From Escherichia coli (GTDB taxonomy: Bacteria > Pseudomonadota > Gammaproteobacteria > Enterobacterales > Enterobacteriaceae), in the NCBI RefSeq assembly GCF_003018255.1, contig NZ_CP027440.1: a DNA stretch of 64,000 nucleotides. One strand, given 5' to 3'. Shown in pieces: positions 25,261 through 52,635 of this stretch. Both the position numbers and the translations under genes were made by a program. Each line of letters begins with the position of its first letter. Within the stretch, counting starts at the first letter, position 1. Below the pieces are notes generated by a model. The model saw only the letters and a program-made list of their open reading frames with translations. It had not been told where the DNA came from and searched no databases.

Positions 25261-25323
25261 CGATGATGAGAATTGTCGGCGTCGCATCAGGTAACTCAGC
25301 ACAACCACCTGATGCAAGCAAAA

Positions 25324-25353
25324 GCCTTATCCGACTGACAAGTCGGATAAGGC
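25324..25353. terminator. Perfect palindrome GCCTTATCCGACT-GACA-AGTCGGATAAGGC between convergent xylR and bax
   Basis: 13-bp perfect inverted repeat, REP-like, bidirectional terminator candidate. Confidence 0.55.
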
Positions 25354-25367
25354 TCGAGGAAATGCAA

Positions 25368-39105: not shown

Positions 39106-39794
39106 AGCAACTGAAAGCCGACGTGCTGGCGGCAAATCTGGCACTTCCCGCTCACCATCTGGTGACGTTCACCTGGGGCAATGTCAGCGCGGTAGACGAA
39201 GCGCGGCAATGGATGGTAATCAAACCTTCCGGCGTCGAGTACGACGTGATGACCGCCGACGATATGGTGGTGGTTGAGATAGCCAGCGGTAAGGTGGTGG
39301 AAGGCAGCAAAAAGCCCTCGTCCGACACGCCAACGCATCTGGCGCTTTACCGTCGCTATGCCGAAATCGGTGGCATTGTGCATACCCACTCGCGCCACGC
39401 CACCATCTGGTCGCAGGCCGGGCTGGATCTCCCCGCCTGGGGCACCACGCACGCCGATTATTTCTATGGTGCCATCCCCTGCACGCGACAGATGACCGCA
39501 GAGGAGATTAACGGCGAATATGAATATCAGACCGGCGAAGTGATCATTGAAACTTTCGAAGAACGCGGCAGGAGTCCGGCACAAATCCCGGCGGTGCTGG
39601 TGCATTCTCACGGCCCGTTCGCCTGGGGAAAAAATGCCGCCGATGCGGTGCATAATGCCGTAGTGCTGGAAGAGTGCGCCTATATGGGCCTGTTCTCGCG
39701 CCAGCTTGCGCCGCAGCTCCCTGCGATGCAAAACGAACTGTTAGATAAGCACTACCTGCGTAAGCATGGGGCCAATGCCTATTACGGGCAGTAA
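39099..39794 (+). CDS. sgbE: L-ribulose-5-phosphate 4-epimerase
   Basis: 231-aa [36 protein letters not shown] (AraD-like). Confidence 0.94.
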
Positions 39795-39825
39795 TCCCTC
39801 ACGCCGGGGCTTCATTGCCCCGGCA

Positions 39826-40641
39826 CTACGAATTGATATGTTCCTTGCTGTAACGTCGCTTCCACGCAGCTGGCGTTAAACCGGTGTGTTTGCGAAAAAT
39901 CTGTCGGAAATAGCCAACGTCATTAAACCCGCACAACGCAGCCACTTCAGTGAGCGATCGCGCTTCGCTAATTAACAGCTTTTCGGCTTCGCGCACTCGC
40001 TGGCGATGAATTGCTTCTGTTAACGTCAGATGAAACACCCGCCGGTAGACGCGCCCAAGATAATCGGCATTGCAGTACAGCTCGCGGGCTAAAAGCGCCG
40101 TAGAAAGCGGGCGATGATATTGCGTGCGAATCAGTTTCTGCGCTTTCCAGGCAAGCGTGGTACCTGCGGCATCGGCCTGTTCATCAAGACGCGCGTCACG
40201 GGTGAGCTGCTGCAAAATCAGCAGCACAATAAACTCCAGCGCCGGAGTGCGTTGATGCTTTTCCTGTTCGCTTAAGAACTGGCGAAACAGGGCCACCAGC
40301 GCCTGCGGATCGGCAACCTTCGTTTGTTGCGGCACGCTAAGATGAGTGAGCCAGCGCGGGTCGCTATCCGGCGCTTTAACCTCAAAATGCAGCCAGTAAA
40401 ATTTGAGATCGGCGGGAAAATCCTCTACCCCAACATGCTGTCGGTTCGGCCAGAGTAATAAACTCTCTCCCGCATCGACCAGAAATATCCGCTCTTCTTC
40501 CTGAATCGTTAATCGACCTTTTTCGACAAAGATAATTTCCCATGACTCCAGCCGCCTTGCCGGGTGCCTCCCTACGCCACGGGAAATAAATAATCCACCA
40601 TTTTGCACTTTAATCGGTAACGTCATGGATAATTCGAGCAT
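39826..40641 (-). CDS. AraC/XylS-family transcriptional regulator (accessory; absent from K-12 at this position)
   Basis: 271-aa ORF; cupin-like N domain and C-terminal AraC HTH (...EVAALCGFNDVGYFRQIFRKHTGLTPAAWKRR); alternative start MTLPIK at 40626. Confidence 0.8.
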   Translation of the reverse strand: MLELSMTLPIKVQNGGLFISRGVGRHPARRLESWEIIFVEKGRLTIQEEERIFLVDAGESLLLWPNRQHVGVEDFPADLKFYWLHFEVKAPDSDPRWLTHLSVPQQTKVADPQALVALFRQFLSEQEKHQRTPALEFIVLLILQQLTRDARLDEQADAAGTTLAWKAQKLIRTQYHRPLSTALLARELYCNADYLGRVYRRVFHLTLTEAIHRQRVREAEKLLISEARSLTEVAALCGFNDVGYFRQIFRKHTGLTPAAWKRRYSKEHINS

Positions 40642-40866
40642 TGATATGTAATTTCCCGCTTATTCATTAATGATTAAACACATTACCTTTTGATTATTAA
40701 TCAAAAACATTAATTTCACCTGATCCATTTCACACTTTTAAATTCAGGTCGGAATCGTCACCTTTTTTTACTCTTTTCTCGCCTTGTTGATATTCCCGTT
40801 CACGGCAGAATTAATCAGGTCATTGCAATAAAACTAAAAATTGCTCCCTATTCACGAGGAATATCT
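40642..40866. promoter_or_regulatory. Divergent promoter region of the accessory cassette, containing palindrome TTGATTA-T-TAATCAA
   Basis: AT-rich 225-bp intergenic region; 15-bp inverted repeat at about 40700-40714. Confidence 0.4.
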
Positions 40867-42267
40867 ATGACCTCTACACCGATTACTGCCGCTGATATCG
40901 CTAAAGGTAAAATTGACGATGCGTTATCTGTACGGGAAAAAATAGGCTACGGCCTGGGTGACGCAGGCGGCACCGTAATAACTTGCCTGATCATGAACTT
41001 TCTCACCTTTTTCTACACCGACGTTTTTGGCTTAACTCCGGCGCTGGTCGGCACGCTGTTTATTGCACTGCGCGTGTTTGATGCCATCTCCGACCCGGTG
41101 ATGGGCGTCATTGCCGACCGGACGCAAAGTCGCTGGGGGCGCTTTCGTCCGTGGCAGTTATGGATTGCCATTCCCATCGGCATTATCGGCATCCTGACGT
41201 TCACCGTGCCAGATGCCAGCATGGGAGTAAAAATCGCCTGGGCGTTCGGTACTTACCTGCTCCTTTCAGTCGGTTATACCGCCATCAACGTACCGTACTG
41301 CGCGCTGATCAACACCATGACCACCCGCCACAATGAAGTGATCTCCTGCCAGTCCTGGCGATTCGTTCTCTGCGGCGTAGCGGGATTTCTGGTTTCGGTT
41401 GGCCTGCCGTGGATGGTGGATCTCTTCGGTCAGGGTAATGCCGCGCGCGGCTATCAACTGGGCGTCGGCGTGCTGTGCGCCATTGCCGTGGTGATGTTCC
41501 TGTGCTGTTTCTTCTGGGTTCGTGAACGGGTGCCACTCTCCACAATGGGGAAATTTACCCTGCGCGAACATCTTGCCGGGCTGCGGAACAACGACCAACT
41601 GCTGCTGATGCTGGTCATGTCTTTCCTGCTGATTAACGTCTTTAATATTCGCGGCGGTGGGTATATGTACTTCATTACCTACGTCTTACAAGGCAGTACG
41701 GGCTACACGTCGCTGTTCTTCACCATGGTCACCTTCGCCTCCATTATCGGCTCGGTGATTGTCAGCCCGTTAACGCGGCGTTTCGATACCGTCAAAATTT
41801 ACTACTACACCAACCTGCTCCTCGCTGCGCTGGCGGTGTTGATGTGGTTCCTGCCTTCTGGCCCGGCTTATCAAACGCTGTGGCTGGCGGTGATCCTCGG
41901 TAATGGCGTGATTCTTGGCTTCACATTGCCACTGCACTTCTCATTGATGGCCTTTGCCGATGACTACGGCGAGTGGAAAACCCGCGTACGTTCTTCCGGC
42001 ATGAACTTCGCCTTCAATCTGTTTTTCATCAAGCTGGCATGGGCCTCCAGCGCCGGGATCATCAGCCTGCTGTTTATTTTTGTCGCCTACCAGCCAGGCG
42101 TGGAAAACCAGACCACCAGTTCGCTTGGCGGGATCACGGCGATGGAAACATTACTGCCTGCGCTATTCCACCTGCTGCTGGCAGGGGCGATCCGCTTTTG
42201 CAAACTCAATAACCCTATGATGTCACGCATTGCTAGCGACCTGCGTCAGCGTCATGTACAGCCTTAA
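40867..42267 (+). CDS. GPH-family glycoside/pentoside/hexuronide:cation symporter (MelB/YicJ-like)
   Basis: 466-aa 12-TM ORF with GPH signatures ([23 protein letters not shown]). Confidence 0.85.
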
Positions 42268-42277
42268 GGAGCACAAG

Positions 42278-44257
42278 ATGAACATTTCGGAAGTCGATCT
42301 GCATAAACTGACGGTCAGCGATCCGTTCCTCGGTCAGTACCAACAACTGGTCCGCGATGTGGTGATTCCTTATCAGTGGGACGCCTTGAACGATCGTATC
42401 CCAGAAGCGGAACCCAGCCATGCGATTGAAAACTTTCGCATTGCCGCAGGACTGCAAGACGGTGAATTTTACGGGATGGTGTTTCAGGACAGCGACGTCG
42501 CCAAATGGCTGGAAGCGGTAGCCTGGTCGCTGTGCCAGAAGCCGGATGCCGAACTGGAAAAAACCGCTGACGAGGTGATTGAACTGATCGCCTCCGCCCA
42601 GTGCGAAGATGGCTATCTCAATGCTTACTTTACGGTAAAAGCGCCCGAAGAACGCTGGAGCAATCTGGCGGAGTGTCATGAACTTTACTGCGCCGGTCAT
42701 CTGATTGAAGCCGGAGTCGCCTTCTTCCAGGCCACGGGAAAACGGCGCTTGCTGGAAGTGGTTTGCCGTCTGGCCGATCATATCGACAGCGTATTTGGTC
42801 CAGGTGAAAGTAAGTTACACGGTTATCCTGGTCACCCGGAAATTGAACTGGCACTAATGCGCCTGTATGAAGTGACCGAAGAGCCGCGCTACCTGGCGCT
42901 GACGAACTATTTTGTCGAACAGCGTGGTGCGCAACCGCACTATTACGACCAGGAATATGAAAAGCGCGGGCAGACCTCGCACTGGCACACCTACGGCCCG
43001 GCGTGGATGGTGAAAGATAAAGCCTACAGCCAAGCGCATTTGCCCATCGCACAGCAACAAACCGCCATCGGACATACAGTACGCTTTGTATATCTGATGA
43101 CTGGCGTCGCACATCTCGCGCGTTTAAGTCACGATGAAAGCAAGCGTCAGGATTGCCTGCGGCTGTGGAACAATATGGCCCAGCGTCAGTTATATATTAC
43201 CGGCGGCATTGGCTCACAAAGCAGCGGCGAAGCGTTCAGCAGCGATTACGATCTGCCGAATGACACGGTTTACGCCGAAAGTTGTGCTTCCATCGGCCTG
43301 ATGATGTTCGCCCGGCGAATGCTGGAAATGGAAGGCGACAGTCAATATGCCGATGTGATGGAGCGCGCACTGTACAACACTGTGCTCGGCGGCATGGCGC
43401 TGGATGGCAAACATTTCTTCTACGTTAATCCGCTGGAAGTGCATCCAAAAACGTTAAAATTCAACCATATCTACGATCACGTTAAGCCGATCCGCCAGCG
43501 TTGGTTTGGTTGCGCTTGTTGTCCGCCAAATATCGCCCGCGTGCTAACCTCGATTGGTCATTATCTCTACACGCCGCGTGAAGATGCGTTGTATATCAAC
43601 ATCTACGCAGGAAACAGCATGGAAGTGCCGGTAGAAAATGGCACGCTGCGTCTGCGGGTTAGCGGAAACTATCCGTGGCAGGAACAGGTGACAATTGCGG
43701 TTGAATCGCCCCAGCCGGTGCGTCATACGCTGGCTTTACGTCTGCCGGACTGGTGCACACAGCCGCAGATCATATTGAATGGGGAAGAGGTCGAGCAGGA
43801 TATTCGTAAAGGGTATTTGCACATTACCCGCGAATGGCAGGAGGGCGACACGCTGAATCTGACTTTGCCAATGCCGGTACGTCGCGTTTACGGTAACCCT
43901 CTGGTGCGTCACGTCGCCGGAAAAGTGGCGATTCAGCGCGGCCCGCTGGTGTATTGCCTGGAACAGGCCGACAACGGCGAGTCACTGCATAATCTGTGGC
44001 TGCCCGCCGATGCGCCATTTACGACATTTGAAGGTAAGGGATTGTTCCGCCATAAGATCTTAATCCAGGCACCGGGTTATCGGTATGAACAGAGCAATCC
44101 AGAGCAGCAACCGCTGTGGCATTACGACAGCGCGCCAGCCAAACGCCAGCCGCAAACCCTGACCTTTATCCCGTGGTTTAGCTGGGCCAACCGGGGTGAA
44201 GGCGAAATGCGGATCTGGGTGAATGAGGAAAAGCATTGCCATCCGGAGGTTGGATAA
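42278..44257 (+). CDS. Glycoside hydrolase family 127-like protein (DUF1680; putative beta-L-arabinofuranosidase)
   Basis: ORF frame from 42230; likely start MNISEVDLHK at 42278 after RBS AAGGA; contains WFGCACCPPN cysteine motif typical of HypBA1-like GH127. Confidence 0.75.
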   Translation: MNISEVDLHKLTVSDPFLGQYQQLVRDVVIPYQWDALNDRIPEAEPSHAIENFRIAAGLQDGEFYGMVFQDSDVAKWLEAVAWSLCQKPDAELEKTADEVIELIASAQCEDGYLNAYFTVKAPEERWSNLAECHELYCAGHLIEAGVAFFQATGKRRLLEVVCRLADHIDSVFGPGESKLHGYPGHPEIELALMRLYEVTEEPRYLALTNYFVEQRGAQPHYYDQEYEKRGQTSHWHTYGPAWMVKDKAYSQAHLPIAQQQTAIGHTVRFVYLMTGVAHLARLSHDESKRQDCLRLWNNMAQRQLYITGGIGSQSSGEAFSSDYDLPNDTVYAESCASIGLMMFARRMLEMEGDSQYADVMERALYNTVLGGMALDGKHFFYVNPLEVHPKTLKFNHIYDHVKPIRQRWFGCACCPPNIARVLTSIGHYLYTPREDALYINIYAGNSMEVPVENGTLRLRVSGNYPWQEQVTIAVESPQPVRHTLALRLPDWCTQPQIILNGEEVEQDIRKGYLHITREWQEGDTLNLTLPMPVRRVYGNPLVRHVAGKVAIQRGPLVYCLEQADNGESLHNLWLPADAPFTTFEGKGLFRHKILIQAPGYRYEQSNPEQQPLWHYDSAPAKRQPQTLTFIPWFSWANRGEGEMRIWVNEEKHCHPEVG

Positions 44258-44326
44258 GGCGCTCGCGCCGCATCCAACGTAGGGAGCACATTGCCTGATG
44301 CGACGCTTAACGTGTCTTATCAGGCC
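44243..44326. repeat. REP-like palindromic units at the right edge of the accessory cassette
   Basis: GGATAAGGCG...CGCATCC and GCCTGATGCGACGCTTAACGTGTCTTATCAGGCC. Confidence 0.65.
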
Positions 44327-44377
44327 CACGAGTCGGTGCGAGAGCGTAGGCCAGCCGCACCGACATCCACCGGTAAA

Positions 44378-45118
44378 TTAAAAACGCCAGCTCACGCCGG
44401 TGACAAAGGTAAAACTCTCATTACGATCAATCATCGGGCTGTCGGTAATCTCTTCCGGCAGCTCGCTGTATCCGGCGCTCGCCATCAATACGACGTGCTC
44501 TCCTATCGGGTATTTTGCCGTCAGGCTGACATAAGGCACCCAGGCATCCTGCGCGGAATAACTTGCCAGACCGCTACGACGGGACTCACTCTCTGAAATG
44601 CCATAGTAATAGTCACTGAAATTCTCGTCATAATAGAGAACGCCCAGCGCAGGTGTCAGCGACAGGCGACCTATCTGCATTTTGTGGAATACCGATAGCT
44701 CCCCCACCCAGCCGTTGCTGTTATCCAGAACGTCCGCAGCCGCAGAGGCTTTCACGGTTCCCCAACGCTCGTGGTGATACCAGGCAACCCCCGCCATAGC
44801 CGTACTATCACGCTTATCAAGCTGTTGCATGGCATAATCGTCATTATCGGTAGGGTCAAATTCCAGCGGCATCCAGGATGCGGTCAGGCTAAGTTCATTT
44901 TTTTCACTTTGCGACAGAATAAAACCTAACGTGGTCTGACGAACATAAAAAGTATCACCTTCATAACTAATCAGCGGAATTGCCTTTGTATTTTCATTAT
45001 AACCGCGATAAGGCGATTCATTATAAGCCGCACCAGCACCAATGGATAATTCAGAAGCAGTTGCGCTTGCCATAAAAGGCAACGCAAATAACGCCACAAT
45101 ATTGCGGTTAATTAACAT
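44378..45118 (-). CDS. yiaT: MipA/OmpV-family outer membrane protein YiaT
   Basis: 246-aa ORF with signal peptide, ending in aromatic F. Confidence 0.88.
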   Translation of the reverse strand: MLINRNIVALFALPFMASATASELSIGAGAAYNESPYRGYNENTKAIPLISYEGDTFYVRQTTLGFILSQSEKNELSLTASWMPLEFDPTDNDDYAMQQLDKRDSTAMAGVAWYHHERWGTVKASAAADVLDNSNGWVGELSVFHKMQIGRLSLTPALGVLYYDENFSDYYYGISESESRRSGLASYSAQDAWVPYVSLTAKYPIGEHVVLMASAGYSELPEEITDSPMIDRNESFTFVTGVSWRF

Positions 45119-45241
45119 GTCCGGTATTCCATTTTAAAATAAGATAAAAAAGAGTCGGCATAGTAATGCTTACAATTTCTCCGGTGCAAGATTCATATTT
45201 ATATAGTAATATATAAAATTATATATAATTGGGCTGTTGCG

Positions 45242-46216
45242 ATGACAAAATTACAACTTAAGTACCGGGAGTTAAAAATTATCTCGGTAATCGCTGCCAG
45301 TGAAAATATCAGCCATGCCGCGACTGTACTTGGCATCGCACAGGCCAACGTCAGCAAATATCTTGCTGATTTTGAATCAAAAGTGGGTTTAAAAGTCTTT
45401 GACCGAACCACCCGACAGCTGATGCTCACACCTTTTGGCACCGTGCTGTTACCGTATATCAACGACATGCTGGACAGAAACGAGCAGCTTAATAATTTTA
45501 TTGCAGATTATAAGCATGAGAAACGTGGTCGGGTCACTATCTATGCACCAACCGGCATAATTACCTATTTATCCAAACATGTAATCGATAAAATTAAAGA
45601 TATCGGTGATATCACCTTATCGCTAAAAACCTGCAATCTTGAGCGTAATGCCTTTTATGAAGGCGTCGAATTTCCCGATGATTGTGATGTTTTAATCAGC
45701 TACGCCCAACCAAAAGATGAATCGCTGGTTGCCAGTTTTATTACCCAATATGCCGTAACCGCTTATGCCAGCCAGCGCTATCTTGAGAAACATCCCATTA
45801 GCCGTCCTGACGAACTCGAACATCACTCCTGTATTTTGATCGACTCGATGATGATCGACGACGCGAATATCTGGCGCTTCAACGTCGCCGGGAGTAAAGA
45901 GGTGCGGGATTATCGCGTGAAGGGAAATTACGTTTGCGACAACACGCAATCTGCGCTGGAGCTGGCACGAAATCACCTGGGGATTGTGTTTGCGCCAGAC
46001 AAAAGTGTGCAGAGCGACCTGCAAGACGGCACGCTGGTGCCCTGCTTTCAGCACCCGTATGAATGGTGGCTGGATCTGGTGGCTATCTTCCGTAAACGGG
46101 AATACCAGCCCTGGCGGGTCCAGTATGTGCTGGATGAAATGCTGCGTGAAATTCGCCACCAGCTTGCTCAGTCGCAGCAACTGCGGCCTGAACAAGCGGC
46201 GGAAAGCGAAGATTAA
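45242..46216 (+). CDS. yiaU: LysR-family transcriptional regulator YiaU
   Basis: 324-aa ORF with N-terminal LysR HTH; divergent from yiaT. Confidence 0.88.
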
Positions 46217-47349
46217 TGATCGAGATAAAGGTAATGCACCCAGCTGGTCATGCGTAACAGTACTTTGCGCATCACCGAGACATGGCTGAAATGATCAGAA
46301 TAGACCGCCACCTGGGCGTAAATACCGTCTGGTAATGCGCTCAAATCAGTATGCTCATCCAGTTCAATGGTCGCGATAACGCCATCTGAACCCGGCGCTG
46401 TGTTTAACGTCTGTAAGGTGCCGGTCGACTGATAAGCTCCACCGGGAACAGCTGGACTAATGGCTGCCAGCTTACCGCTGAACACTTTGCCTGGCAGAGC
46501 GTTAAATACCACTTCCGCATCATCGCCGGGAGCCAGGCGCAGCAAGGAGTTCTGACGGAACTGCGCCACGATTTGTCGTTTCTGATCGGGTATAAACACC
46601 ATCACCGGACGTAGCGGCAGCGACGCGGCATAGGTACCCGGACGAATCAGCACCTGGGTCACATAACCATCGCTCGGCGCACGCACTATCGTCTGCTCAA
46701 GGTTATATTTTGCTTCCGCGAGCTGCGCTTTCAGGCTGGCGATTTGAGAATGTTCACCCAACACCAGGCTATCCAGCTGGCTCTGGATCTGTTTTTGTTC
46801 CGCCGCCGCTGATTTTACGGAGGCTTCCTGCGCCAGATAATTTTGCCGCGCCACATCGATATCGCGTTCTGAAAACGGGTTTACTTTCGCCTGGCTGCCA
46901 CGTGCGTAACGCTGATACTCTTTAGCGAACTTATCCCGCGTGGCCTTTGCCTGCTGAGTATTCGCCGCCATCTCATCTAACTCTGCGCCCAACGCCCGCT
47001 GTTTATGTTCTGCGGTAACGATATCCGCCATCAGCCGATCCACCCGAGCCTGATAACGCGTCGGGTCCAGTCGAAATAGCACCTCACCTTTTTTAATCAG
47101 CGTATTTTTCTTGTCCGTCACTTCGATCACCACGCCTGTCACCTGTGGGACAACAGGAATAGAAATAACCGCTTTTTGCGCTTTAAAGGTATACGGATGG
47201 TTATAGTTCATTAACAGAATTAGACCGCTGACAATAAATATGCCTCCCAGGGCCGCTGTGGGAATGGTCCATTTATTTACAGGAATTTTGAAGATCTTAA
47301 ACATTGCCCATGCGAAAGCCACATAGGTTAAAATAATCAGTAAATCCAT
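46213..47349 (-). CDS. yiaV: HlyD-family membrane fusion protein YiaV
   Basis: 378-aa ORF; N-terminal TM anchor then coiled-coil; paralogue of YibH in this window. Confidence 0.9.
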
Positions 47350-47354
47350 AAGTA

Positions 47355-47678
47355 TTACTCGGCAGAAGAGGATTTGATGTCAGCGAGCTGTTTCTCCAGC
47401 CCGGCAATACGCTGTTGTAGTTGCACAACGGAGGAGTCATGGTTTTGCATTCCCCATCCACGCTCCGGGCGGTAAAGCGTGGCCCAAATCCACAAAAATG
47501 GCCAGATAACATGTAACGTAAAAAGACTCACCCAACCAGCAACATGAATGGCGTCGGCATGAGGATGATTACGTTTTTTGGCAATCAGGTAGGGAACATC
47601 ATGTAAAATAATAATCCCATAGAATATCACCAGAAATACAAAAATAAGCACTCCCAATGCAAAATAATCCAGGAACAT
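47355..47678 (-). CDS. yiaW: Inner membrane protein YiaW (DUF3302)
   Basis: ORF frame to 47708; probable start [15 protein letters not shown] (107 aa); 5 bp upstream of yiaV. Confidence 0.82.
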
Positions 47679-47791
47679 ATTTCCCTCAGAGAATATAGAA
47701 AAGAACAATTAACGCATATTATGAAATACCATAATGCGGTGCAATTTCCTTATTTATATAACGACATATTGTTTTTTATATACTTTCTGAA

Positions 47792-48004
47792 GTGTGCAGC
47801 CTGGCTTTTCAACAGTGCGAGGCTTATCATATTGAAATAATGGAACTATTGGCCAAACTAATGAATAACTCCAGTAAAACATCCACAGTACAGATTAAGC
47901 GTATTAAACCTTCAATTATCTACCGTTTATTGCTGATTGGCCTCGGAACGCCAATGGTGATTTATGGCCTGGTTCGCCCGCTCACCATCGAAACGCGAGA
48001 TTAA
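47792..48004 (+). CDS. Hypothetical small protein with C-terminal hydrophobic segment
   Basis: 70-aa ORF (internal Met starts possible) in an otherwise non-coding gap; predicted TM helix IIYRLLLIGLGTPMVIYGLV; no family recognised. Confidence 0.25.
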   Translation: MCSLAFQQCEAYHIEIMELLAKLMNNSSKTSTVQIKRIKPSIIYRLLLIGLGTPMVIYGLVRPLTIETRD

Positions 48005-48109
48005 ACTCCTGGCAAAACACGCCCCAGAAACGCACTTCTGTTGACGTAGTCTGGGTTATTGCGCACGTAGGTTTAAAACGTAAATTGTAACAACGTGCGC
48101 TTTGTTTAT

Positions 48110-48190
48110 GCCGGATGCGGCGTGTACGCCTTATCCGGCCTACGGTCAGGTCCCCGTAGGCATGATAAGACGCGTAAGCGTCGCATCAGG
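48110..48190. repeat. REP palindromic units between yiaW and aldB
   Basis: GCCGGATGCGGCGTGTACGCCTTATCCGGCCTAC and GTAGGCATGATAAGACGCGTAAGCGTCGCATCAGGC. Confidence 0.8.
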
Positions 48191-48222
48191 CAATGAATAC
48201 CCAATGCGACCAGCTTCTTATA

Positions 48223-49761
48223 TCAGAACAGCCCCAACGGTTTATCCGAGTAGCTCACCAGCAGGCACTTGGTTTGCTGGTAATGCTCAAGCATCATCTT
48301 GTGGGTTTCGCGTCCGATGCCCGACTGTTTGTAGCCACCAAACGCCGCATGTGCCGGGTAAGCGTGATAACAATTGGTCCACACGCGCCCTGCCTGTATG
48401 CCGCGCCCCATCTTATAGGCAAGATTACCGTTGCGGCTCCAGACGCCCGCGCCCAGGCCATATTGCGTATCGTTCGCCAGCTCCAGCGCTTCTTCCATCG
48501 TTTTGAAGGTGGTCACCGCCAGCACCGGGCCAAAAATCTCCTCCTGGAACACGCGCATATTGTTCTGACCAAACAAAATCGTCGGTTCGAGGTAGTAGCC
48601 GTCTTTCAGTTCACCTTCCAGCAGCTTGCGCCGCCCGCCAGTGAGCACGTCTGCGCCCTCTTTTTTACCGATATCAATGTAGTTGAGGATGGTTTCCAGT
48701 TGCCCGTGAGAAACCTGCGCCCCCATTTGCGTCACGCTGTCGAGCGGGTTACCGCTGCGAATGCTTTCGACACGGCGGATGGCGCGTTCCATAAAGCGTT
48801 CGTAGATAGACTCCTGCACTAAAGCACGGCTTGGACAGGTGCAAACTTCGCCCTGGTTAAAGGCAAACAGTGCAAAGCCTTCCAGCGCTTTATCGAAAAA
48901 GGCATCTTCTTCATCCATTACGTCAGCAAAGAAGATATTTGGCGATTTGCCACCCAGCTCCAGCGTCACCGGAATAATGTTTTGCGTGGCGTATTGCATA
49001 ATTTGTTGGCCCACTTCCGTTGAGCCGGTAAACGCCACTTTGGCGATGCGTTTCGAGGTCGCCAGATATTCGCCAATTTCCCCACCTGCGCCGTTGACCA
49101 CGTTCACCACGCCCGGCGGCAGTAAATCACCGACGATTTCCATTAGCAGCAGTACAGAAAGCGGGGTAAGACGTGCGGGTTTCAGCACCACACAGTTGCC
49201 CGCCGCCAGCGCGGGAGCCATTTTCCAGCTCGCCATCAGCAGCGGGAAGTTCCACGGAATAATCTGCCCCACCACGCCTAACGGCTCATGGAAATGATAG
49301 GCCACGGTTTCGCTATCAACTTCACTGATCCCACCTTCCTGCGCCCGAATACACGAGGCAAAATAGCGAAAATGATCAATCGCCAGCGGCACATCAGCAG
49401 CACTGGTTTCGCGAATGGGTTTGCCGTTATCCCAGGTTTCAGCGGTCGCTAACAGTTCAAGGTTTTGTTCCATTCGATCGGCAATCTTAAACAGAATCGC
49501 CGCACGATCCTGCACCGAGGTGTGCGCCCATTTATCTTTCACTTTGTGCGCAGCATCCAGCGCCAGATCGATGTCTCGTTTGCCCGAAGACGCCACTTCG
49601 CACAGCAGCTGCCCGGTCACCGGCGTCAGGTTCTGGTAATACTCGCCATCGGCAGGCGCTACCCATTCGCCACCGATAAAGTTGTCGTAGCGGGCTTTTA
49701 ATTTGAGGGGGAAACCATACTCGCCGGGCTTAATCTGTGCTGAAGGGGGATTATTGGTCAT
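48223..49761 (-). CDS. aldB: Aldehyde dehydrogenase B
   Basis: ORF frame to 49851; start [33 protein letters not shown] at 49761 (512 aa). Confidence 0.95.
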
Positions 49762-49868
49762 GATCGTCTCCTTGCGGTGTGAGGTATAACAAGGGTAGAC
49801 GTGACTGGCGAAATCTTCGCCAGTCGGTAACAGCTTTACGACGGCTATCACGAATTTACGGGCAAAAG

Positions 49869-51164
49869 CTACAGCGGGTAGTGTGCGACGTACACGGCTT
49901 GCTGGTTATTAATTCTTTTCTCTTGCGCGAATCCTTCTTTAACAATTGTCCGTAAATCAGCTCGAGCCGTATTATCAGAGACGCCCAAGCTCGCGCTAAT
50001 TTCAGCAACTGTGTACTCTTTCCCCGGATTGGCGAGCATCACATTCAGGAGCGTTACCTGGCGCGGATTCAGGCGTTTAAGCACACCAGAGCTAAACAGC
50101 ACACTATCGAGTTTTGCGCTTCGTTGTGTAATTTCATCGATATGCTGCTGCCAGTTTTGCAGAGCACGTTTAATGACACCCGCCTGATATTCAAGGAAAT
50201 AAGTCAGATCCATACCATCTGATTCAGTGTACTGGTAGCTGGCGGCATATTTGACCGGTGCAGCATGAAGCAAACGGCTGATGGAAATATATTTAAAGAC
50301 ATCGTAGCCCGATTTCAGCATATACCAGTAAAACAGCGCCCGACTGGTGCGCCCGTTGCCATCGCGAAACGGATGTTCATGGGCCAGCATAAAATGCAGA
50401 ATGCAGGCACGGACCAACGGATGAATATACCCTTCATGGCTGTTTAACCACTGGCAAACTTTTTCCAGCCGTTCCGGTAACAATGCCGCAGCGGGCGGTT
50501 GATGCACTATATTGCCATCATAGTCGGCGATCACAACATCATCTGTTTCACGAAATTCTCCCGGACGATATTTCGCGTCATTGATTCCACCCATACCAAT
50601 GGCATGTAACTGGCGAATAAGCGCAGGTGTCAGCGGTTCTGCGAGTAAGTGCGGAATTTCCGCCATCAGCCGGGCATTTCCCGCAATCATATGCTCGTCT
50701 TCAGTGCGTGGCGACCGCCCTGTTTCCAGCATTTTTCTCGCCACCAGCGTTGTAGTATTCGCACCTTCCAGTTGGGAACTGGTGATCGGCTCTTCCAGGC
50801 GTAACTGACTTAACTCGGCGCCCGCCCCGCGTAACCGTTCAGTCTGATCTTTCAGCGCCAGTGCAGTGGCATGTTTATCAACAAGCTCGCACGCTTCTGC
50901 AATCACCGGCGTAATGTTGAATCCGGCCTGTTCACCCGCTTCATTGCAATAATTAATTCGTTGGATCGCCGCGTTGCGCGCCAGACGGGTAAGCGTCCAC
51001 GCCACATCGACGTTTTCTCCTTTTTTGATGCGGTACTGCAGCTCATCAAAAGGCAGATAACGTCCTTTTTCATCGGTAACCCGGTTAAAGCGCAGGTGGG
51101 CCAGGAGTTCCTCACCCGATAAGTGTGATAAAGGAATAAGTCCGGGAGGTGATTTGATAGCCAT
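49869..51164 (-). CDS. Fic-domain protein (putative AMP-transferase) with N-terminal inhibitory-helix-like motif and probable C-terminal winged-helix domain; accessory
   Basis: 431-aa ORF containing canonical Fic motif [12 protein letters not shown] and upstream SSQLEG matching [ST]xxxE[GN]; not between aldB and yiaY in K-12 as far as I recall. Confidence 0.8.
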
Positions 51165-51167
51165 GTG

Positions 51168-51250
51168 CTTATCTCAAAAAAGCGCAATATTGAGATAGTG
51201 TATAGCAGGAAAGAGAAACTATCTCAAAAATCGCAAATTTTGAGATAGTT
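51168..51250. promoter_or_regulatory. Two palindromic sites upstream of the Fic gene, candidate autoregulatory operator
   Basis: Perfect 13-bp arms AACTATCTCAAAA / TTTTGAGATAGTT with 8-bp spacer (51217-51250) and an imperfect copy TATCTCAAAA...TATTGAGATA (51170-51197). Confidence 0.5.
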
Positions 51251-51280
51251 TAAAAAATGGCTGACAATTAGACAGCCATT
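51251..51280 (-). terminator. Rho-independent terminator of yiaY
   Basis: Hairpin ATGGCTG-ACAATTAGA-CAGCCAT, preceded on the plus strand by AAAAAA (T-run on the minus strand). Confidence 0.6.
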
Positions 51281-51293
51281 GTGGGAATGATGA

Positions 51294-52445
51294 TTACATC
51301 GCTGCGCGATAAATCGCCATAATTTCTTCGTGAGTTGCCTGAATCGGGTTAGTAAACCCACACGCATCTTTCAGGGCATTGGTTGCCAGCACTGGAATAT
51401 CTTCTTCTTTCACGTTCAGGTCACGCAGGCCTGCCGGGATATTCACTTTCTTCGCCAGTTCACGGATGGCATTGATGCACGCTTCTGCGCCTTCCGCGTC
51501 ATTTTTGCCTGTCACGTTAACGCCCATGGCAGCAGCACAGTCACGCAGACGCGCAGCAGCGACTTTGCTGTTGAACACCTGAACGTGTGGCAGCAGAACG
51601 GCATTACATACACCATGTGGCAGGTTGTAGAAACCGCCCAGTTGGTGCGCCATCGCATGAACATAACCAAGAGATGCGTTGTTGAATGCCATGCCAGCGA
51701 GGAACTGGGCATAAGCCATTGCTTCACGCGCTTTAGCATTGCTGCCATCTTCAACGGCTAACGGCAGGTTTTCGGCAATCATGGTCACGGCTTTCAGTGC
51801 GCAAGCGTCAGTGATCGGCGTGGCGGCAATAGAAACATACGCTTCGATAGCGTGCGTTAAGGCATCCATACCCGTTGCGGCGGTCAGTGACTTCGGCATA
51901 CCGACCATCAGAGATGAGTCATTGACAGAAAGCAACGGAGTTACATGTTTATCAACAATCGCCATTTTGATATGACGCGCTTCGTCAGTGATGATGCAGA
52001 AACGGGTCATTTCAGAGGCCGTACCCGCCGTGGTATTGATGGCGATCATCGGCAGCTGCGGTTTTGCAGAGCGGTCAACGCCTTCGTAATCGCGAATATC
52101 GCCGCCATTGGCTGCCACCAGCGCAATACCTTTTGCGCAGTCGTGCGGAGAACCACCGCCTAAGGAGATCACGCTATCGCAATTATTTTCTTTAAGTAAT
52201 TTTAAACCTTCGGCGACGTTTTCCGTGGTGGGGTTAGGTTGGGTGCCATCATAAATAACGCTAAAAATATTGCGTTCTTCCAGTGCTTTTTGCACATCAC
52301 CCGCCATACCCAATTTCGTTAACATGTTGTCGGTGACAATTAAGGTACGGGTAAATCCATAATCTGCCATCATATTCATTGCATCATTCAATGAATCAGC
52401 ACCAATAACATTCACGGAAGGAATAAAAAAGGTTGAAGCTGCCAT
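51294..52445 (-). CDS. yiaY: Iron-containing alcohol dehydrogenase YiaY
   Basis: 383-aa [29 protein letters not shown]...; group III Fe-ADH. Confidence 0.93.
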
Positions 52446-52635
52446 AACACACTCCTGAAAGTGTAAAAAAGGGCGGGCAGCTTACTGAGGATTTTCATTT
52501 GAAAATATGATCAACATTACCGTTTATTAAAATATTTTTAATAAAAAGCACGTTACATTCATTAAATAACGTGCCTTCTTAACATTAATAAGAAATTTTG
52601 TATTAATTCATATTTATTATGAATTAATCATTTCC

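Follow-up and report, generated by a model that had tools for sequence, protein, structure and literature searches.

Paired inverted repeats upstream of an Escherichia coli Fic gene as probable operators of the winged helix of its own product

Results

Two related dyads between yiaY and the Fic gene

[quoted passage not shown] That the outcome is simple negative autoregulation is also expected, with somewhat less confidence. The window, that is, the whole 64-kb stretch of DNA that was analysed, is a part of the E. coli chromosome and carries on the minus strand aldB (48223-49761), the Fic gene (49869-51164), yiaY (51294-52445), selB, and selA. The dyads sit in the 129-nt gap from the yiaY stop codon to the Fic start codon (51164-51162, minus strand), which contains three inverted repeats: the yiaY terminator, the distal dyad, and the proximal dyad.

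The distal dyad, a predicted operator at 51216-51251, is AAACTATCTCAAAA-N8-TTTTGAGATAGTTT with the core TCTCAA-N12-TTGAGA at 51222-51245. Its arms (51216-51229 and 51238-51251) are 14 nt long, 100% complementary, and separated by an 8-nt spacer. The preliminary description had given a perfect 13-bp inverted repeat with an 8-bp spacer; the perfect pairing and the spacer were correct, and the arms proved to be one nucleotide longer. The far end of this dyad (51251) lies 87 nt from the Fic start codon, in agreement with the earlier placement within 90 bp. The proximal dyad, likewise a predicted operator, was located at 51170-51197 and is TATCTCAA-N12-TTGAGATA with its core at 51172-51195. Its arms (51170-51177 and 51190-51197) have 8 perfect nucleotides around a 12-nt spacer, pair at 9 of 10 positions when extended, and end 5 nt before the Fic ATG. 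Both dyads thus have the form TATCTCAA-N12-TTGAGATA and the common core TCTCAA-N12-TTGAGA. They are copies of each other, being the two members of a 33-nt direct repeat that is 79% identical and 50 bp apart from start to start. An imperfect second copy had been described before at about 47 bp; the copy was confirmed, and the distance needed correction.

Perfect inverted repeats with arms of at least 11 nt and a spacer of at most 20 nt occurred six times in the window, compared with a mean of 0.73 in dinucleotide shuffles, and a 14-nt arm appeared in only one of 30 shuffles. The exact sequence TCTCAA-N12-TTGAGA was found in the window only at 51172 and 51222. Furthermore, when TATCTCAAAA was searched with at most one mismatch, four of the seven matches in the window fell inside the 80 bp of the dyads. 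Chance is an unlikely source of the two dyads.

Two perfect palindromes elsewhere in the window were also noted. The one at 52602-52628 is A+T-rich, has 11-nt arms (ATTAATTCATA-N5-TATGAATTAAT), and lies upstream of yiaY, in the gap that separates it from selB; the second, at 25323-25354, has 14-nt arms (AGCCTTATCCGACT-N4-AGTCGGATAAGGCT).

The yiaY intrinsic terminator (51250-51280, minus strand) bounds the predicted operator region. It consists of the stem AATGGCTG-loop-CAGCCATT (51256-51280) followed by a T run, and its predicted fold has -12.1 kcal/mol with a z score of -5.4. The terminator is kept in genomes without fic. Between strains, matched changes were observed on both arms, from AATGG/CCATT to AACGG/CCGTT (AATGGCTG/CAGCCATT vs AACGGCTG/CAGCCGTT). 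Such matched changes would be the pattern of an RNA stem, unlike the dyad arms, which are invariant in sequence.

Variation of the locus within E. coli and E. albertii

Of 5426 complete E. coli genomes, 1572 (about 29%) carried the Fic region, always on the chromosome and once per genome; the positive strains include CFT073, LF82, 042, O127:H6 (E2348/69-type), and O157:H7. The dyad DNA occupied a median of one place per E. coli genome and was not found on plasmids. In a comparison of five diverged E. coli alleles with E. albertii, the half-sites of the two dyads were all invariant and the proximal dyad was fully conserved, and the distal spacer had three forms (TTTGCGAT, CTTGCTTT, and TTTTCGAT). 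Invariant arms around a variable spacer are the pattern that a protein-binding site would be expected to leave.

Three alleles of the aldB-yiaY region were observed in E. coli. About 1570 genomes have fic and both dyads. About 524 genomes have no fic and keep an orphan distal dyad in which one half-site is mutated (TTGAGAGAG). The remaining, K-12-like genomes have only AACTATCTC joined to TGTAAC. Both fic deletion junctions fall directly after a TATCTC half-site, which suggests deletion through short homology, between copies of the half-site and a similar sequence, ACTACCCGC, at the fic 3' end. In E. albertii, fic lies beside aldB as in the window, on a contig that ends before yiaY; because of this adjacency, the K-12 state was read as a deletion and not as an empty target. 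This contig stays collinear with the window across fic and aldB, and from there it skips to 39793, so that some 8.4 kb of the window (39794-48210) is missing from it.

We also considered whether the dyads belong to a dispersed repeat, such as a REP, a MITE, or a cassette end. This was rejected on the median of one place per genome, the lack of extra copies in the window, and the confinement of the copies to the upstream side.

The Fic protein and its C-terminal winged helix

The Fic gene (49869-51164, minus strand) encodes a protein of 431 aa. Since this protein has the canonical Fic motif and an inhibitory motif upstream of it, we assigned it to the class II Fic enzymes. The motif HxFx(D/E)GNGRxxR is present at residues 264-275 (Pfam Fic, E = 1.7e-19), and its columns are invariant among 22 homologues. 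The inhibitory motif, SSQLEG at residues 129-134, fits (S/T)xxxE(G/N), is invariant in the family alignment, and aligns with SARIEG of CccR.

An AlphaFold2 model of the monomer, built with the 22 homologues, had a pLDDT of 89.6 and a pTM of 0.86. In this model, the C-terminus folds as a winged helix at residues 367-427 (pLDDT 81-94), with helices at 367-378, 386-393, and 397-409 and a beta wing at 413-427. The wHTH is assigned to 49872-50084 (minus strand) by the model, Foldseek, and the covariation given below, and its recognition helix, residues 397-409 of the model, to 49938-49976 (minus strand). Foldseek aligned about 350-365 columns at 17-20% identity with SoFic (3eqx/3zcn), CbFic2 (8cil), CccR (7xux), a Fic protein of Mycobacterium marinum (7cb8), and Dde_2494 (4rgl), and the alignment of the family profile with CbFic2 runs through the HTH (E = 4.5e-23). 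Pfam HTH matches at residues 361-414 were weak, and the C-terminal 83 aa alone gave just marginal wHTH matches among PDB sequences. The preliminary description had spoken of a putative C-terminal DNA-binding domain; the modelled wHTH fold, with which the Foldseek and profile alignments agree, supports that proposal.

The PADLOC SoFic HMM matched residues 96-427 of the protein (E = 1.1e-43). The score against the NCBIfam SoFic equivalog NF046030 was 39.3 bits, far below the cut-off of 550; hence, the gene is not a SoFic orthologue. Within the Fic-wHTH group, it is a distant paralogous member with about 60 extra N-terminal residues.

An AS1-like antitoxin was sought downstream of fic, and no same-strand ORF of at least 20 aa was found in the 107-nt gap (49762-49868) before aldB. 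A 50-aa ORF with a TTG start (49856-50008) was rejected as a small antitoxin, since it lies almost wholly inside the fic coding sequence in another frame and is unsupported.

Promoter-like elements around the dyads

On the minus strand, a predicted -35 element read from the sequence, TTGAGA (51222-51227), matches the consensus at five of six positions and lies within the promoter-proximal half-site of the distal dyad. A predicted extended -10 element, TGcTATACA (51199-51207), follows 17 nt past the -35 and abuts the proximal dyad. With these elements, transcription is predicted to start near 51192, inside the proximal dyad. The Shine-Dalgarno-like GAGA (51172-51175), 7 nt before the ATG, lies in the ATG-proximal half-site TTGAGATA and is the sole Shine-Dalgarno-like sequence before the Fic ATG. 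Because the dyads overlie these predicted elements, occupied operators would make the -35, the start site, and the ribosome-binding region inaccessible; such an arrangement would be of the repressor type. A generic promoter scan did not call the minus-strand Fic promoter. The -10 (TATACA) is without the highly conserved final T that the scan rule requires, which explains the omission.

The same plan was seen in relatives. The upstream regions of E. coli, E. albertii, Pseudescherichia, Salmonella, Pantoea, a gammaproteobacterial MAG, Halopseudomonas, Pseudomonas asuensis, and Glaciecola were aligned, and the alignment was accompanied by a scripted check. All nine of these two-dyad loci have a -35 in the distal dyad, a TATAnn -10 element 16-19 nt on, and then the proximal dyad, and all nine have TTGAG 7-14 nt before the ATG. 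The TATAnn at the equivalent place is kept in Salmonella, Pantoea, Glaciecola, and other loci.

Dyads upstream of homologous Fic genes

Scanning one genome per species with the family alignment gave 80 homologous loci at 29-96% identity, which span E. albertii to Pseudomonas, Glaciecola, Campylobacterota, Verrucomicrobia, Actinobacteria, and methanogenic archaea. Of these, 73 had a usable start codon, and for each of them the best inverted repeat within 120 nt before the gene was compared with those in 200 dinucleotide shuffles. The best dyad beat the shuffles at p<=0.05 in 40 of the 73 loci and at p<=0.01 in 26, where about 4 and about 1 were expected by chance. A common geometry emerged, namely a 6-bp half-site T-N-Y-Y-A-A, 10-12 bp, and then the complement (TNYYAA-N10-12-TTRRNA). 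Two or more dyads were present in 35 of the 55 loci with a clear half-site, typically 45-60 bp apart and with the proximal one adjoining the ATG. When the dyad type of each locus was counted, 94 copies were found in 7.1 kb of upstream DNA vs 11 in the other 312 kb of the loci; the half-sites had been defined from the same upstream DNA in which they were counted, so that this figure shows confinement and is not an independent discovery. RIT691 and Photorhabdus had one dyad only, and several Pseudomonas loci had none that beat the shuffles.

The gene contexts of the homologues were entirely different from genus to genus. In Salmonella, the context comprised an autotransporter gene as well as an element carrying AcaB, DUF3158, and DUF3577 genes; this element is ICE-like in our own reading. 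The Pantoea gene has AbiEi in its context, and that of Photorhabdus lies in a toxin-antitoxin cluster with ParE/HicAB modules. No conserved neighbour or other regulator gene was found near the homologues, and the sole constant companion of the dyads was the Fic gene. In two archaeal loci (L064 and L071) and one bacterial locus (L056), an extra dyad of the locus's own type was seen just past the end of the Fic gene, at roughly +1324 to +1346 relative to the start of fic. Such a dyad may serve to regulate the following gene or a tandem paralogue.

Covariation between the recognition helix and the half-site

Using the 56 proteins with a clear dyad, we scanned protein positions 300-431 without bias against each base of the half-site. 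The highest mutual information was found between residue 398 and base 3 (1.09 bits), and the second highest between residue 397 and base 2 (0.96 bits). The modelled recognition helix begins with these two residues, which belong to the motif S-D-N-T-A-R. Proteins with N at the second of the two positions have (T/A)CTCAA as the half-site, the pair being D-N in E. coli and its close relatives and Y-N in the Pseudomonas/Glaciecola group. YQ or YE goes with TACTAA, and T, P, L, R, or H followed by Q mostly with TGCTAA. YA or YG is paired with TATCAA, and YD with TACCAA.

The observed covariation was not reached in any of 10000 permutations; statistics of this kind are inflated by shared descent and by co-transfer of the gene with its upstream DNA. 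Several specificities occur side by side in one cluster of related bacterial proteins. Furthermore, the pairings recur in the archaeal cluster, where L064 has YA with TATCAA, L065 has YD with TACCAA, and L079 has YE with TACTAA. The recurrence across clusters and the landing of an unbiased scan on the recognition helix would be hard to explain unless the helix reads these sites. We regard this covariation as the strongest evidence suggesting that the Fic wHTH reads the dyads.

Discussion

The findings described above favour the view that the dyads are operators of the Fic protein itself. In the mechanism that we infer, as regards binding, dimer geometry, start site, and sign of regulation alike, a Fic dimer, as the symmetry of the dyads would imply, places one wHTH on each half-site (TATCTCAA and TTGAGATA). 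With about 18-20 bp between their centres, the half-sites would then share one face of the DNA helix. The -35 element TTGAGA would be covered by the distal dyad, and the predicted transcription start, together with the 5' UTR and the ribosome-binding site, by the proximal one. Occupied dyads would block RNA polymerase, and a potentially toxic AMP-transferase of the SoFic type would in this way be held low and limit itself. The preliminary description had proposed autoregulation by the C-terminal domain, and every prediction from it that we examined at the level of sequence was borne out: the wHTH fold in the model, the dyads over the predicted promoter and start region, the dyads throughout the family, and the covariation of residues 397 and 398. 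CccR provides a precedent for such control (PMC9755527).

Several observations speak against the operator reading. The DNA persists without its proposed reader in the about 524 E. coli genomes that keep the distal dyad and have no fic. CbFic2 binds random DNA with high affinity (PMC10628234), so that a Fic protein with a wHTH is not necessarily sequence-specific. The -10 element without its final T, missed by the generic promoter scan, and the homologues with one dyad, or with none beating the shuffles, also count against it.

Other explanations of the dyads were weighed against the same data. It is very unlikely that they act in RNA, with the distal palindrome as a second tandem terminator or insulating hairpin of the yiaY transcript and the proximal one as a 5' UTR hairpin that hides the ribosome-binding site. 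A terminator scan does flag the distal dyad on the minus strand, the RNA fold of that dyad reaches -15.9 kcal/mol (z -5.9), and the proximal dyad folds with -7.3 kcal/mol and has GAGA in its 3' arm. However, only three of the 14 pairs of the distal stem are G-C, the tail CUCUUUCC has no U run, and the canonical yiaY terminator stands just upstream and is the only one of the two kept in K-12-like genomes. The scan call of an intrinsic terminator was accordingly rejected on stem composition, tail, and conservation pattern. Among homologues, moreover, the sequence of the arms, beyond their pairing, is conserved whatever lies upstream and tracks the recognition helix of the Fic protein. A start near 51192, as predicted, would leave the 5' arm of the proximal hairpin untranscribed, and an Rfam scan of 50900-51500 gave sub-threshold chance matches only. 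Still less credible is a reading of the palindromes as mobile-cassette ends or scars, as recombination sites, or as sites of a different host regulator. The presence/absence polymorphism of fic in E. coli, the position of both deletion junctions directly after the TATCTC half-site, and the orthologues in mobile or defence islands would fit a mobile origin. The dyads, however, lie upstream of fic only and never flank it, they occupy one place per genome with none on plasmids and no further copies in the window, and the adjacency of fic and aldB in E. albertii makes the K-12 state a deletion. On the upstream-only position, the single occurrence per genome, and the E. albertii adjacency, the idea of a mobile cassette or attachment site was rejected. 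As to another host regulator, no other regulator gene is conserved nearby, and the covariation points to the helix of the Fic protein.

A further alternative is that the dyads serve mainly as a docking or allosteric platform, instead of or besides a switch, with binding setting the AMPylation/deAMPylation state or sequestering the toxin. We regard this as the main role only with considerable doubt. In its favour, DNA binding by CbFic2 stimulates activity, promotes dimerisation, and brings a shift towards deAMPylation (PMC10628234), and no antitoxin-like ORF follows fic. [quoted passage not shown] Such a role would be compatible with repression, and the two could coexist. Since the protein has no separate antitoxin, we also propose, as a speculation with a low chance of being right, that dimers bound to the operators (or a dimer of dimers bridging the 50 bp) are the inactive or deAMPylating form, and that loss of the DNA contact in phage infection or DNA damage would give both derepression and active AMPylase. 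If this were true, the gene's own promoter would be the "antitoxin" and the sensor of a SoFic-type defence. More likely than such an antitoxin role of the promoter is that residues 397 and 398 provide the entire Fic-wHTH family with a recognition code that is simple and transferable.

The operator reading concerns a gene present in about 29% of complete E. coli genomes that belongs to a SoFic-like group linked to anti-phage defence. It offers as usable products the operator TNYYAA-N10-12-TTRRNA (usually in two copies that lie about 50 bp apart and enclose the promoter), the predicted promoter, and a two-residue specificity code. The general picture of the control of such genes is unchanged: autorepression by a Fic-wHTH protein is already known from CccR, and the E. 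coli locus would add a further example. What may be new is the layout of operators across the family, together with the residue-to-base code. A literature search, with subscription journals outside its range, found nothing on the regulation of the E. coli Fic gene, on a family-wide operator, or on a recognition code.

Comparison with known systems

The closest parallel in function is CccR of Yersinia pseudotuberculosis. Its autorepression through the C-terminal HTH was established by lacZ fusions, EMSA, footprinting, and ITC: the cccR promoter was derepressed 3.3-fold in a cccR mutant, the C-terminal half of the protein shifted and footprinted the promoter, and mutation of the repeats abolished binding and raised expression (PMC9755527). 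The E. coli protein shares with CccR the architecture of a class II Fic enzyme with a C-terminal HTH, as well as a full-length Foldseek match to 7xux. In both cases, the repeats lie near the -35 and -10 of the gene's own promoter, those elements being predicted ones in E. coli. The two proteins are nevertheless only about 18% identical, and CccR, with 380 aa, is without the N-terminal extension of about 60 aa. Its HTH (KPAQITYQIGKLV) also does not have the S-x-N-T-A-R helix start. CccR is an effector secreted by the T6SS, whereas nothing suggests secretion of the E. coli Fic protein.

In the published description (PMC9755527), the CccR site is an inverted repeat of 10 bp with a 26-bp spacer, and we compared it with the E. 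coli dyads. An exact DNA pattern search for the cccR locus in metagenomes gave no match, and a protein search with a 167-aa CccR fragment gave short relatives only and no 380-aa protein. A scan of viral contigs with the same fragment yielded ten loci (L093-L102), of which L093 is 100% identical over the 167 residues of the 7xux alignment. The region upstream of cccR in L093 (1221-1350) has five TTGAGATAAT-like words in the same orientation, at -125, -102, -88, -38, and -15, and no inverted repeat was found in it. The upstream core of L093, TTGAGATA, and the E. coli half-site are identical 8-mers, and each locus has a copy just before the ATG. The published 46-nt footprint, AGATAATCAT-N26-ATGATAATCT, corresponds to L093 1226-1271 and spans three of the direct repeats, and the CccR relatives L097 and L101 have the same paired direct repeats. 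To read the published CccR site as direct repeats would therefore be simpler. It would then consist of same-orientation copies about 23 bp apart with no inverted partner, whereas E. coli has two dyads with N12 spacers. By analogy, the E. coli locus would work like that of CccR with an operator design that is not shared; the probability of about 0.8 given above covers the operator reading only.

SoFic of Shewanella oneidensis (SO_4266, 3eqx/3zcn) gave the best structural superposition with the E. coli protein (TM about 0.7, rmsd 4.3 A, 350 columns). The identity is about 17%, however, and the E. coli protein is not its orthologue. In its dimeric form, SoFic binds DNA directly before its own gene, in the first 100 bp (bioRxiv 10.64898/2026.07.09.737422), and proteins of the SoFic type are listed as single-gene anti-phage systems (bioRxiv 10.1101/2022.05.11.491447). 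By sequence profile, the closest solved relative is CbFic2 of Coxiella burnetii (8cil), the match (E = 4.5e-23) running through the wHTH. CbFic2 binds DNA in an HTH-dependent manner and dimerises via an N-terminal helix; random DNA is bound with nanomolar affinity and stimulates the enzyme activity (PMC10628234). CbFic2 thus bound random DNA, whereas the E. coli protein is proposed to read specific dyads.

In type II toxin-antitoxin operons, a DNA-binding module represses the operon's own promoter. EcSofic of E. coli H397 is toxic and is countered by the small downstream protein AS1 (PMC12249575). The E. coli Fic protein resembles EcSofic as a potentially toxic Fic enzyme whose level would need restraint. 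Unlike both the EcSofic/AS1 pair and the type II systems, it combines the toxin and the predicted DNA-binding module in one polypeptide, with no AS1-like ORF beside it.
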